NCBI GenBank assembly: GCA_965231215.1
Contig: OZ246423.1
Span: 864,001-928,000 of the forward strand
Source: Candidatus Altimarinota bacterium
Lineage (GTDB): Bacteria > Patescibacteriota > Gracilibacteria > UBA4473
Reading direction: 5' to 3'
DNA length: 64,000 nt
The position numbers were made by a program, and so were the translations under genes. Shown here piece by piece: positions 45,827 through 52,881 of the stretch (within the stretch, counting starts at the first letter, position 1; each line of letters opens with the position of its first letter). The notes below the pieces were generated by a model. That model ran no database searches, was not told the origin of the DNA, and was given only the letters and a program-made list of their open reading frames with translations.

Positions 45827-46741
45827 ATGTCCAGTTTTTCTGTTATCATTCCCAGCTATAATGAAGGTGCGTGGCTTGAACGCACTGTTATGGGCGTACT
45901 GGAGAATACCAATTACCCAGAGTTTGAGATCATTATTGTAGCCGATAACTGCACCGATAATTCTACCGATTTTTGTAAACAAAAATCTATTCCCAACGTA
46001 GTGCTCTTGGAAACTTCACACAATTTGGGAGCGATAGAAGCTCGGAATTATGGCGCTTCTATTGCCGAGGGAGAAAACTTAGTCTTTATTGATGCTCATG
46101 AAGTTCCGGAAACCGATAATTGGATTTCGGTGCTATTTGACTTGCTTGAGAAGCCTAATACGGGAGCGGCAACAATACCGATTTCAAGCTTCGAAGACCC
46201 TCAGAGGATTGGGTATGTGTATCGCCTTAAGGATTTGGCGCTAGAGCCTGCTTGGGAGTCGAGAGAATCAAAACATTTACCATTAGTACCGGTTATTCCT
46301 GGGGGGTGTTTTGCCATTAAAAAATCTGTATTTATCGAAACAGGAGGGTTTAATCCTTTGTTAAAAAAGTGGGGGAGAGAGGACCTAGAATATTCGCTTC
46401 GTTTGTGGCGAATGGGATATGATTTGAGGTCGTCAAAGGCAGCTAAGATTGCTCACGCATTTAGCCATAAAAGAGCATTTGAGATTAGTTGGGATCAGGT
46501 GGATCATAATATTTTGCTTATTGCTGATTTATTGTTTTCCTCAGAGGCGTGTAAAAAAGTTTGTACACATTTAAAAAAGATTCGTCCACAGAATTATGAT
46601 AAAATTTATCAACAATTATTAAATAATGAAGCCTACCAAGCTTACAAAGCAAAACTACTGCTAAAGCGTAGTTTTGAGGACTATAAGATCGAGTTTAAAG
46701 ACTATTTACCAAAAAATTATTCTCTTATACCACAAGTATAA
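45827..46741 (+). CDS. GT2 family glycosyltransferase
   Basis: SVIIP.YNE, DN.TD, ARNYG, FIDAH, WGREDLE. Confidence 0.92.
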   Translation: MSSFSVIIPSYNEGAWLERTVMGVLENTNYPEFEIIIVADNCTDNSTDFCKQKSIPNVVLLETSHNLGAIEARNYGASIAEGENLVFIDAHEVPETDNWISVLFDLLEKPNTGAATIPISSFEDPQRIGYVYRLKDLALEPAWESRESKHLPLVPVIPGGCFAIKKSVFIETGGFNPLLKKWGREDLEYSLRLWRMGYDLRSSKAAKIAHAFSHKRAFEISWDQVDHNILLIADLLFSSEACKKVCTHLKKIRPQNYDKIYQQLLNNEAYQAYKAKLLLKRSFEDYKIEFKDYLPKNYSLIPQV

Positions 46742-47979
46742 AACATTCCAAGCCCTATATTTTTCCAGTCATTATCACTTCCAACTCTTAATGGAGTAGT
46801 GCTATAGCCAATATAACTAGGGACGATTGATCCAAGCTCTCCATGGTTTCCACTTCCCCAACACCATAAAGCACCATCATTCTTTATCGCACAAGAGTGA
46901 GAGTATCCTGAAGCAACGCTTTCCCAAGTGTTCTCACTTCCTACCTGTGTAGGAACCCTCTTACTACCTGTATAGCGTTTTCCCTGACCAAGCTGTCCAT
47001 AGTGATCTCCCCCCCAACACCACAAAGTATTATCTGTTTTTATCGCACATAAGTGTCTTTTTCCTATACCAATACTTTTCCAAGTATCGGTACCAACCTG
47101 AACGGGAGTACTTCGATCTATAGCATCATTCTGTCCTAGTTGTCCATAACGGTTATCTCCCCAGCACCACAAGGTATTATTATTTTTAGTCGCACAGGCA
47201 AATTTATTTCCAAGGTAAATATTTTTCCAATCGTTATCGCTACCAACTTGCACAGGGCTCGGTTGGTTATCTGATGGATCATTACTACCAATTCCAAGTC
47301 TTGAATCAGAATTACTCCCCCAACACGACAAAGTATTATCAGTTGTTATTCCACAAGTATGATCTAATCCTGCTGAAACATCTTTCCAAGTACCAGGTAA
47401 TCGCTTAGGGTAATGTTCATACTCATGAATTCCTCCTTTTCTGCCTATTCCTAGCTTCCCAAGGTAAGTGTGTCCCCAACACCATAACGTATTATCATCT
47501 TTTATTGCACAAACATGTCCAGCTAAACCAAATTCTATAGTATCTGCCAGACTACTTAAGTATGAAGGACTCATTCCCCAACATTGAAGATTATTTCCAC
47601 TTGAAATAGCACAAAAGGAATTCACCCCAATTCCAACTTTGTTCCAACTACTACTTTCAAACTGCTCAGGCTCATGAGTATTTGATAATCCTGGAAGAGG
47701 TGAGCTTCCCCAGCACCAAAGAGCCTCTGGAACATGGCATGCCGAAAATTCAATATTTATGGGTTTATTATTCAGAAAAGAGTGCCATCCTGTGGTGGTT
47801 TGAGTTGGAACAAATCGTTCTTTCCCATCCAAGCTCTTAATTTTTTTACAAATTCCATGAGCATTAATTATTTTATCGGCTGTTCCAATACGGAATCCAG
47901 TAAGAATGGTATTAATTGCAAAAACCTCGTCAAAAAGAAGCAATAACGAAAGTAAGAAAAATAATTTTTTTGTTCTCAT
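46717..47979 (-). CDS. secreted RCC1/BLIP-II beta-propeller repeat protein
   Basis: signal peptide; about 7 repeats of H.CAI..D.TLWCWG....GQLG; ATGA-coupled to the upstream fibre gene. Confidence 0.9.
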   Translation of the reverse strand: MRTKKLFFLLSLLLLFDEVFAINTILTGFRIGTADKIINAHGICKKIKSLDGKERFVPTQTTTGWHSFLNNKPINIEFSACHVPEALWCWGSSPLPGLSNTHEPEQFESSSWNKVGIGVNSFCAISSGNNLQCWGMSPSYLSSLADTIEFGLAGHVCAIKDDNTLWCWGHTYLGKLGIGRKGGIHEYEHYPKRLPGTWKDVSAGLDHTCGITTDNTLSCWGSNSDSRLGIGSNDPSDNQPSPVQVGSDNDWKNIYLGNKFACATKNNNTLWCWGDNRYGQLGQNDAIDRSTPVQVGTDTWKSIGIGKRHLCAIKTDNTLWCWGGDHYGQLGQGKRYTGSKRVPTQVGSENTWESVASGYSHSCAIKNDGALWCWGSGNHGELGSIVPSYIGYSTTPLRVGSDNDWKNIGLGMFYTCGIRE

Positions 47980-49853
47980 AGATTCATAACTTCCTTTAAT
48001 TTATTAATTTGTTCTTGTTGATTTTCAATTAATTTCTGTTGTTGATCCGTTAGTTCTTTCATTTCTTTTAAGGCCTCAACAAGTATGGCATTTATATTTC
48101 CATAGCGAACCGACTTCAGCCCATCCACCTCGCTTGTTTCTACGAGTTCTGGTAGGACTCTTTCAACATCTTGAGCAATGAAACCAATAGAATTTTTATC
48201 AGAATTATTCCATTTAAATTTAACACCTTCTAATTGCTGAATAATTTTTATTGGATTTTTGATTTTCAAAATGTCTTTTTTCAAACGCTTATCAGAGGAG
48301 TAAACAAAATCTGTTGCTAGAACTGTTCCTTCAACATCTAGCTTCTGAGAAGGGGCCGTCGTCCCAATCCCGACATTACCCGTATGCGCAACCGTCATGG
48401 AAGGTGTCCCGCCATAATAGGAATTACCAGCAGCACCATCTACATAAAACCGAATATCCCCTGCATTGGACACCAAACGTATCCAGTTGCTTCCACCTTC
48501 AGAATAAAGCCCTAAATCAGTACCAGAAGCCAACCCCGCTTTGTTGATGATGCCCTCTCGAACCCTCAAACCACCACTACCAATATCCAACGTAGCACTC
48601 GGCGTCGCCGTCCCAAGACCAATATAACCATTACCACCATCAAGCGTAAAGTGCGTATTTTCCCCAACACCACCACCCACATTAATCTTGAATTTATGAT
48701 TATCTGACTGATCCAGTCCTACAGAATACCAAGCATTCCACGGATCATGGAAACGAATTTGCGAGTCAGCATCATTATTCTCAACCTCGATATTCCCGCC
48801 GCGTATCTCTAACTTATTATCCGGATCTGCCGTCCCAATCCCGACATTGCCGCCGACAAGCGCCATGTCAGTTGCAACAGAACGTAAGATAGCCGTATTA
48901 TTACTATCTGTTGTTATATCAAGAATTCTTTGGTCACCCGCTTTATCATTATTAAAAATACTAAAAAATTGATTGTCATCTAGACTTCCTGCTGGCGCAG
49001 CGCCAAGAGCCCTGCCTGCCATTATTATCCCTGAAACATTCAACTTCGCATTAGGAGACTCCGTCCCAAGCCCGACATTGCCATTCGCTGCAATACTCAA
49101 ACCATGATACCAATTGGTACCATCATTATTATAGATAGAGAGCGCATTCGGCGCACCATAAGAAGATGGTCTCTTAACAAAATCTGTAAAGTGTGAGCCA
49201 CCATTGCTACTTTGCAAACGTAACGTATGGCCAGTATTATCCGGCGAAAGAACGTGCAACGGCAAACCAGGCGTCGCCGTCCCAATGCCAACCCTACCGG
49301 TTTCTGTCACTCGCATAAGTTCAGCCCAGTTACCGCCTGGGCCAGCGGCATTTTTTCCGATGACGAGGGCTCGGTTATCATTATCATCATTATTCCAGTC
49401 CATAGAAAGATAAACATTGTCTTCCCCATTTAGCTCTAGAGCTCCATTACTGTCATAAATAGTGCCGCCTCTTACCAGCAGTGTACCATCTATTTGAAGA
49501 TCTCCGTCTTCATCAATGTTGGCTTTATCTGCATCGGCTCCTGTTCCAATCTGAAAGAGTTTTTCATTGGCGGTAGGAGAGGCTTTGTGAATTGAAAAAT
49601 GTGCCGGAAAAGTATCGGTTCCAATACCGACTTTCCCATTAAGATAATAGAGGTCTTGACCGCTGAAATTCCAAACCTGATAGCCTAAAATATCAACAGC
49701 GGTAGAGAGGCTTAGGAGATCAGTTCTTACCTTGTTCCAATCTGAGGCCCGAATAAGTTCTCCACTATTGACAGTGGGAGTGGTTATTGTCACCGCAGCG
49801 TAAGAAGTATTTGAGAAACTGAACAACAGCCATGCAAGCAATAGAGTTCTCAT
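47976..49853 (-). CDS. secreted tail-fibre-like trimeric adhesin with C-terminal S74 autocleaving chaperone
   Basis: signal peptide, GNVGIGT repeats, SDKRLKKDI...GFIAQDVE..LPELV..Y..LVEALKE coiled coil. Confidence 0.88.
   Translation of the reverse strand: MRTLLLAWLLFSFSNTSYAAVTITTPTVNSGELIRASDWNKVRTDLLSLSTAVDILGYQVWNFSGQDLYYLNGKVGIGTDTFPAHFSIHKASPTANEKLFQIGTGADADKANIDEDGDLQIDGTLLVRGGTIYDSNGALELNGEDNVYLSMDWNNDDNDNRALVIGKNAAGPGGNWAELMRVTETGRVGIGTATPGLPLHVLSPDNTGHTLRLQSSNGGSHFTDFVKRPSSYGAPNALSIYNNDGTNWYHGLSIAANGNVGLGTESPNAKLNVSGIIMAGRALGAAPAGSLDDNQFFSIFNNDKAGDQRILDITTDSNNTAILRSVATDMALVGGNVGIGTADPDNKLEIRGGNIEVENNDADSQIRFHDPWNAWYSVGLDQSDNHKFKINVGGGVGENTHFTLDGGNGYIGLGTATPSATLDIGSGGLRVREGIINKAGLASGTDLGLYSEGGSNWIRLVSNAGDIRFYVDGAAGNSYYGGTPSMTVAHTGNVGIGTTAPSQKLDVEGTVLATDFVYSSDKRLKKDILKIKNPIKIIQQLEGVKFKWNNSDKNSIGFIAQDVERVLPELVETSEVDGLKSVRYGNINAILVEALKEMKELTDQQQKLIENQQEQINKLKEVMNL
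48364..48616. repeat. 253-bp direct repeat, copy 1 (copy 2 at 51152-51404)
   Basis: identical by eye; encodes GTATPSATLDIGSG...HTGNVGIG in both fibres. Confidence 0.92.
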
Positions 49854-49944
49854 ATTTATTTTTTTTCACACTTTATAATACAGGTATTTGTTTTTAGTTT
49901 AAAGTTAAATTTTCTGACTTGTTTTTTTAAAATTTTGGATGGAT
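49276..49944. repeat. about 670-bp direct repeat, copy 1 (copy 2 at 52304-52971)
   Basis: covers promoter, signal peptide and first ~192 codons; only a few substitutions seen. Confidence 0.95.
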
Positions 49945-50019
49945 ATCAGCAAAATTCTCTGTTGATAAACTTTATCTGATCATTGTATCAGAAAACCCCT
50001 AAAAAATAAAGTGAGGATT

Positions 50020-52881: not shown

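Follow-up and report, generated by a model that had tools for sequence, protein, structure and literature searches.

Mosaic fibre genes and a recurrent 14-nucleotide module junction in a small Patescibacteria bacterium

Two tandem fibre genes (A and B) and a giant fibre gene next to them (C) were analysed in a 64,000-nucleotide stretch of the chromosome of Candidatus Altimarinota bacterium (assembly GCA_965231215.1, contig OZ246423.1, positions 864,001 to 928,000). This whole stretch is referred to as the window. Subject of the analysis was a 14-mer that recurs at the edges of the modules of A and B. Positions are those of the window, unless given as genome positions. The three genes are:

47976-49853, minus strand: fibre gene A, 625 aa, with N-terminal domain, four motif-bounded modules and Peptidase_S74 at 48141-48296 (site SDKRLK)
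50020-52881, minus strand: fibre gene B, 953 aa, with A-type N-terminal domain, six modules of mixed origin and Peptidase_S74 at 50158-50328 (site SDARLK)
53114-58840, minus strand: giant fibre gene C, 1908 aa, secreted, with four C1q domains separated by Gly/Ser linkers

Proteins A and B have a signal-peptide-like N-terminus, followed by a common N-terminal domain of 192 aa. Conserved N-terminal domains of two types were found among the fibre proteins of this genome. Each module of A and B begins with GxVGIGTxxPxxKLxV. PF13884 scores were 56.7 (A) and 58.0 bits (B) at a cut-off of 22, and A and B were the only PF13884 proteins in the genome. The catalytic site SDxxxK is readable in both translations, using the definition given for the S74 chaperone in the accessible text of PMC10769870. 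Judged by domain and site, A and B are Peptidase_S74-type fibre proteins with a predicted self-cleaving chaperone. Matches to protein B were obtained in 19 of 24 other genomes of the family.

For structural comparison, protein A was aligned by phmmer with the solved MAT (mosaic adhesive trimer) fibres of Bdellovibrio. The best match was 8OND (Bd2133; E 5.9e-12), followed by 8OML (4.5e-4), 8OJN (1.1e-3) and 8OL4 (2.3e-3), and the alignments were centred on GNVGIGTxxPxxKL. The sole phage match among solved structures was the S74 chaperone of a long tail fibre (6F45). No gp37 or gp38 family was among the Pfam hits of the A/B locus. Subdomains of Bd2133 were placed using the boundaries published in the accessible text and the phmmer alignments, with a chain offset of 661. 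Each of the beta-helix subdomains, G683-E813 and N814-A907, opens with the first G of one motif copy and closes just past the following copy. Since the motif lies at these edges, the peptide is a structural edge element of the fibre modules. On these alignments, A and B are classed as secreted fibres related to the Bdellovibrio MAT fibres. Their role would be attachment to the host cell.

The 14-mer is CCAATCCCGACATT and codes for N-V-G-I-G inside GNVGIGT. Six exact and two one-mismatch copies were found, in agreement with the original prediction, which had been made from the letters of the window:

48364-48377, minus strand: exact copy, gene A, where module M4 meets the S74 region; also in the orthologue of the congener G004, within the recently shared segment
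48835-48848, minus strand: exact copy, gene A
49066-49079, minus strand: one-mismatch copy, gene A, peptide GNVGLGT
50879-50892, minus strand: exact copy, gene B
51152-51165, minus strand: exact copy, gene B, downstream (C-terminal) end of the M4 copy, peptide GNVGIGI
51401-51414, minus strand: exact copy, gene B, upstream (N-terminal) end of the M4 copy
51917-51930, minus strand: exact copy, gene B
52100-52113, minus strand: one-mismatch copy, gene B, peptide GNIGIGT, downstream end of module M1

All eight copies lie on the same strand, in direct orientation and in frame, and are confined to A and B. Both mismatches change a residue. In shuffled sequence 0.04 copies were expected, and none of 100 shuffles reached eight. 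Within the whole genome of 1,326,059 bp, the exact 14-mer occurred at these six positions only. Eleven other GNVGIGT peptides are encoded in the genome, one at 58454 in gene C and ten at genome 959-968 kb, and none of the eleven carries the 14-mer; the different coding in the giant gene had been predicted correctly.

For codon comparison, pairs of copies with the same residue were counted across the eight copies. The same codon was used in all pairs of the core (N 27/27, V/I 20/20, G 27/27, I/L 20/20). At the flanking residues this fraction was 8/27 (first G), 11/27 (last G) and 7/21 (T), and further along the motif 5/28 (P), 6/15 (K), 5/28 (L) and 4/11 (V). Synonymous identity is confined to four codons (Asn-Val-Gly-Ile), and these do not follow background usage, as the original prediction had expected of the junctions. 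Among Val codons, the share of GTC is 12.8% in the genome as a whole and 8.2% in the remainder of A and B; for GGG among Gly codons it is 23% and 21%, respectively. Assuming independence, the chance of seven copies agreeing at all four codons is about 1e-7. Shared ancestry of the modules cannot account for the identity of the 14-mer, since the conserved positions next to it are saturated.

Across the family, the 14-mer was compared in 42 other genomes, each with 0 or 1 copy. One copy each was present in G004, G015 and G044 and none in the remaining 39, next to six here. The 44 motif copies in related loci were diversely coded, and a congener gene with 12 motif copies contained 11 different versions.

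For DNA comparison, G004, a congener of the same genus, was used. The following modules and segments are shared between A and B, with the congener or with another fibre gene of the genome:

48364-48616, minus strand: module M4 in A, 84 aa, 253 bp, 100% identical to 51152-51404 and 97% identical to the congener
51152-51404, minus strand: copy of M4 in B, 253 bp, 100% identical to the copy in A
52097-52321, minus strand: module M1 of B, 222 bp at 98% to two genes of the congener, both ends inside motifs
51982-52108, minus strand: module M2 of B, 127 bp at 87% to the 868-aa fibre gene (genome 959993-960119)
49276-49944, minus strand: promoter-proximal region and N-terminal domain of A, duplicate of 52304-52971, ending 2 nt after GRVGIGT
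52304-52971, minus strand: promoter-proximal region and N-terminal domain of B, duplicate of 49276-49944
about 46600 to 48612-48632, minus strand: segment about 99% identical to the congener, comprising the end of a glycosyltransferase gene, an RCC1-repeat gene, and the S74 region and M4 of A

Upstream of M4, a different neighbour is found in each of A, B and the congener; between B and the congener the match extends over 267 bp at 97%. M1 likewise has neighbours in B that differ from those in the two congener genes. M2 starts in a motif; it ends at a Gly/Ser linker, and the next motif is 49 nt away. Of the 672 bp in the N-terminal duplication (98.8% identical), about 94 bp precede the start codons and 578 bp are coding (99% identical). 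Both the identical 253-bp module with unlike neighbours and a duplication of about 670 bp ending at GxVGIGT had been claimed before and were recovered here. M4-like modules were also flanked by GN[VF]GIG in 7/7 fetched proteins of other architectures, one of which is named a Bacteroidetes tail fibre domain protein.

Gene A and its orthologue in the congener are 75.5% identical in the N-terminal domain (first ~540 bp) and 98.6% identical in M4 plus S74 (last 660 bp). The genes flanking the segment of about 99% identity are 72-83% identical, and its gene-internal end lies at a GYIGLGT motif. This pattern of identities indicates a recent transfer of about 2 kb between this lineage and the congener. 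Since the RCC1-repeat gene is inside the segment, it would have been exchanged together with the C-terminal part of fibre A. This gene (46717-47979, minus strand) encodes a secreted protein and shares its first 4 nt with the stop end of gene A. The syntenic locus of the congener holds the orthologue of A only; B and C are not there. As judged from the alignments, modules are exchanged between A, B and genes of the congener.

Elsewhere in the congener, at about 704.8-705.1 kb, a 118-aa open frame is 47% identical to the S74 region of protein B. It sits downstream of a fibre gene that ends in a glycine-rich, non-S74 tip, and looks like the remnant of a chaperone displaced by tip replacement.

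A DNA search of the genome with A and B returned the locus itself, one 127-bp relative in a complete fibre gene and a 67%-identical domain in C. Scanning a genome collection with protein A yielded the congener and one short fragment only, and a metagenome scan with protein B yielded five distant loci (44-66% identity over about 50-100 residues) and no population alleles. The original prediction had proposed to search for the same modules in other fibre genes; M1 and M4 were found in the congener and a relative of M2 in the second fibre cluster of this genome.

For breakpoint analysis, the distance to the motif was determined for ten gene-internal segment ends in A, B and the congener genes. 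The distances were 6, 2, 0, 0, 0, 0, 0, 49, 164 and 24 nt, so that seven of ten ends lie 6 nt or less from a motif. Only 6-9% of each gene is within 3 nt of a motif. The binomial probability for six of ten ends within 3 nt is about 1e-4 at p of about 0.09, although the events are not independent. The end at 49 nt is in a Gly/Ser linker, the one at 164 nt just past the signal peptide. The crossover points mapped so far are found close to the 14-mer's 3' end or immediately ahead of the V codon. The Gly codon ahead of the core goes with the upstream module, and the Gly-Thr codons behind it go with the downstream module. Other junctions were formed without the 14-mer, at GYIGLGT, GRVGIGT, GKVGIGT and SRVGIGT. 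The motif is the main joint, not the sole one. The original prediction had taken the junctions as in-frame crossover points; this is borne out in that ends cluster at the GxVGIGT motif, and has to be narrowed in that several junctions lack the 14-mer and some are at Gly/Ser linkers or elsewhere.

Three public runs of one study (X1-X3) contain the stretch. Contigs of X1 extend over all eight 14-mer copies and over the two ends of every repeat and show 0 differences; none of them spans a whole repeat, and X1 may be the source sample of the genome itself. Two joints were found among the public contigs, 48612>52100 and 51400>52100, both in the M1-M4 order of the congener. They were assigned to the congener-type allele by a shared difference at 48534/51322 and by loose ends matching G004 exactly. 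The contig loose ends at 50031 and 52321 are G004-like. Since such an allele is present in samples of the same study, the congener co-occurs with this organism. Alternative module orders had been named in the original prediction as something to look for; the contigs of X1-X3 showed none beyond that of the congener, and rare variants are not shown by contigs.

Other loose ends run into unlike sequence at 48243, 49981 and 50992 (X1) and at 46350 and 46543 (X3), pointing to additional related strains or paralogues in these samples whose fibre loci differ. One X1 contig joins the A-B intergenic sequence of the window to G004 sequence with the displaced S74 frame.

Gene C contains motifs at 57680 and 58454, whose coding differs from the 14-mer, and an internal relative of the N-terminal domain of A and B. 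Its Gly/Ser linkers are similar to each other at the DNA level. Over its N-terminal 650 bp, identity is 95% to two fibre genes located at genome 961-967 kb. These belong to a second fibre cluster at genome 955-970 kb, with genes of 522, 868, 1241 and >1181 aa and a common N-terminal domain different from that of A and B. Here, a tandem duplication of roughly 3.9 kb at 94% and a 695-bp block at 99.9% common to two genes were observed. The block begins exactly at xx|VGIGT. The two long genes of this cluster consist of a series of similar repeats followed by a C1q-like tip. In total, the fibre genes of this genome that are related to the prey-recognition fibres of Bdellovibrio number at least eight.

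The organism is a small standard-code Patescibacteria ('Altimarinota') bacterium with a chromosome in one contig (1,326,059 bp, 39.9% GC). Aragorn found 35 tRNA genes and one tmRNA in the whole genome. Genetic code 25 was ruled out, with prfB above cut-off and the UCA anticodon in 0/35 tRNAs found. Although its lineage carries the label Altimarinota (Gracilibacteria in a broad sense), the organism uses the standard code, with RF2 present and no tRNA reading UGA. Neighbours of the fibre locus are housekeeping genes (ribosomal protein L25, aminotransferase, glycosyltransferase, malic enzyme, protease), which rules out a prophage or tailocin setting. Within about 10 kb of the fibre genes, neither a reverse transcriptase (RT) nor a recombinase was found among Pfam matches and neighbour genes, as had been stated in the original prediction. 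Two RT genes lie side by side at genome 327388-329326 (open frames of 455 and 674 aa), 585 kb from the fibre locus, and have no sequence in common with it. RecA and the uptake channel ComEC are both encoded in the genome.

The locus has probably evolved as mosaic fibre genes ordinarily do, by general recombination over short homology at a structural motif, and the identity of the 14-mer would be a footprint of recent exchanges. As a structural element, the peptide GNVGIGTxxPxxKLxV marks the edge of every beta-helix module, which accounts for its conservation. It is also the only sequence common to otherwise unrelated modules, and a joint within it preserves frame and fold; new gene versions would therefore arise mainly by recombination at the motif. 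Three routes are likely: unequal exchange or gene conversion between the tandem paralogues A and B, recombination with further fibre genes in the same genome, and recombination with DNA from congeners that co-occur with it. RecA may act here on DNA taken up through ComEC. Selection would then retain in-frame, foldable joints. Most likely, the identical 14-mers reflect several recent exchanges resolved inside the motif, i.e. local concerted evolution, and this is the weakest link of the account. On this reading, the 14-mer is not the recognition site of a dedicated machine.

Several points weigh against this account. It is not obvious how recombination could homogenise a 14-nt core without flanking homology, the exact tracts common to motif copies being only 20-25 nt. 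This is at or below the length usually required for RecA exchange. In gene A, the M4 junction at GYIGLGT was made with about 8 nt of shared sequence, so that the 14-mer was not needed there. The second fibre cluster has two of eight segment ends at the motif; the others are at Gly/Ser linkers or inside repeats. Recombination events were deduced by comparing finished sequences. A single close congener has shared segments, so the events are few and non-independent. Finally, breakpoints could come to lie at the motif because foldable chimeras are selected, with DNA identity playing no role.

This last point leads to an unlikely explanation, in which selection is the only filter: modules are joined anywhere by recombination or illegitimate joining, only edge-joined chimeras fold into a trimeric fibre and survive, and the 14-mers are incidental, e.g. 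when modules come from one donor pool. The position of the motif at subdomain edges in a solved homologue and the junctions lacking the 14-mer would fit, as would the junctions at Gly/Ser linkers, which are also domain edges, and the multi-motif genes of relatives without identity at the DNA level. What such a filter leaves unexplained are four agreeing codons in all eight copies, with a Val codon used at 8%, beside invariant neighbours of varying coding; no such donor pool was seen in the 42 family genomes or the metagenome scan. Alternatively, selection might act on the nucleic acid itself and maintain the 14-mer for some other purpose, for instance pausing of translation where modules meet or binding of a factor to mRNA or DNA. 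GTC and GGG are minority codons here and the copies stand at module starts. We consider this highly improbable, as the eleven other genomic GNVGIGT peptides and the 44 motifs of related loci are coded otherwise and the peptide or fibre thus needs no such coding, and an Rfam scan of the window gave no match.

It is very unlikely that a dedicated diversity generator, recombinase-free or still unknown, frequently shuffles modules at the 14-mer within a population. The synonymous identity is real and local, the copies are in frame and direct in two tandem genes, and breakpoints lie at the motif, all of which would be expected of it. The 14-mer pattern is absent from the relatives (42 family genomes), there are no inverted copies and no nearby recombinase or RT, and further copies of A/B modules are lacking in the genome except for M2, so that there are no silent cassettes. 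The only two joints in public contigs are both of the congener's allele, although contigs drop rare variants. It is scarcely conceivable that assembly or polishing made the repeats look identical. The genome is a single-contig metagenome assembly and no public contig runs across a whole repeat; against this, the X1 contigs show no difference at any copy or repeat end, and the same blocks occur in the independently assembled congener at 97-99%. Assembly collapse had been named beforehand as a possible refutation.

Beyond short-homology recombination at the structural motif, the homogenised 14-mer might be kept because it promotes recombination of fibre genes, which we regard as unlikely. This would be a recombinase-free, motif-guided exchange of cassettes between tandem genes and with DNA taken up from co-occurring relatives, in an episymbiotic or predatory bacterium. 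If true, host-attachment modules would be re-sorted over the time scales of populations, and a cell would have its own equivalent of the adhesin strategy of T-even phages.

For comparison with known systems, three classes of diversification were ruled out. A diversity-generating retroelement does not agree with repeats that are 99-100% identical and with the lack of an RT within about 10 kb. A shufflon or invertase switch was discarded with all eight copies on one strand and no recombinase among the neighbours, and silent-cassette conversion of the pilE/pilS type with no partial donor copies in the genome DNA search with A and B.

Homology-facilitated illegitimate recombination takes place during natural transformation in Acinetobacter and Streptococcus. 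The segment of about 2 kb shared with the congener is similar in that it ends in homologous flanking genes on one side and in microhomology within the fibre gene on the other. ComEC and RecA are encoded here as well, and this organism may be transformable.

The MAT S74 fibres of Bdellovibrio bacteriovorus are a mosaic multi-gene family with a recurring edge motif, and 'tip swapping' is mentioned by the authors in the accessible text (Caulton et al. 2024, PMC10769870). A and B resemble them as chromosomal signal-peptide fibre genes of a multi-gene family with variable C-terminal parts and an S74 chaperone with SDxxxK. The same motif recurs at beta-helix edges, with direct matches to the four solved fibres (8OND, 8OML, 8OJN, 8OL4). 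The MAT family is described with a signal peptide and a conserved beta-rich N-terminal domain of about 130 aa; for A and B, a signal-peptide-like start and a conserved N-terminal domain were read from the sequence. Between V-G and P, the motif consensus printed in the accessible text is one residue shorter than the motif here. A and B come from a Patescibacteria bacterium of 1.3 Mb and not from a predatory proteobacterium. Exchange at the DNA level, which the accessible part of that account does not treat, was found here both among paralogues and across species; its breakpoints fall at the motif, and the coding of the motif is locally homogenised. Among the matches listed in a literature search, no S74/MAT-type fibre was described for Patescibacteria or Gracilibacteria, and GNVGIGT was in no paper found.

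Recombination between conserved motifs of the T-even tail fibre/adhesin genes g37/g38 was reportedly described by Tetart et al. in 1998, according to papers that cite this work. As in g37/g38, short conserved motifs flank variable segments in A and B, receptor-binding proteins are chimeric, and breakpoints lie in or near the motifs. The motifs themselves differ (glycine-rich motifs and His boxes there, GNVGIGT here) and the proteins are unrelated. The T-even genes belong to phage genomes with very active recombination, whereas A and B lie on a cellular chromosome and are known from sequence alone. A and B are therefore similar to this motif-shuffling class in their manner of working and are not members of it. 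For T-even adhesin genes, conserved motifs have been proposed as recombination points for module shuffling in the accessible text of two papers (Trojet et al. 2011, PMC3157838; PMC12032242). The claim of an undescribed diversity-generating system is accordingly not supported, with the 14-mer peculiar to one gene pair (0 or 1 copy in 42 family genomes) and shuffling at motifs already in print, as far as these texts are accessible.

Significance of the fibre genes lies with the host lineage. Patescibacteria live attached to other cells, and the recognition of those cells is largely unknown. With A, B and their relatives, concrete candidates for proteins of host recognition are at hand, and their sequences record how nature re-sorts the parts that determine specificity. 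Recombination at conserved motifs of receptor-binding fibres is an established mechanism in phages, and the present finding extends this known principle; new here are the host lineage and the documented exchange of modules between species with locally homogenised coding of the junctions.

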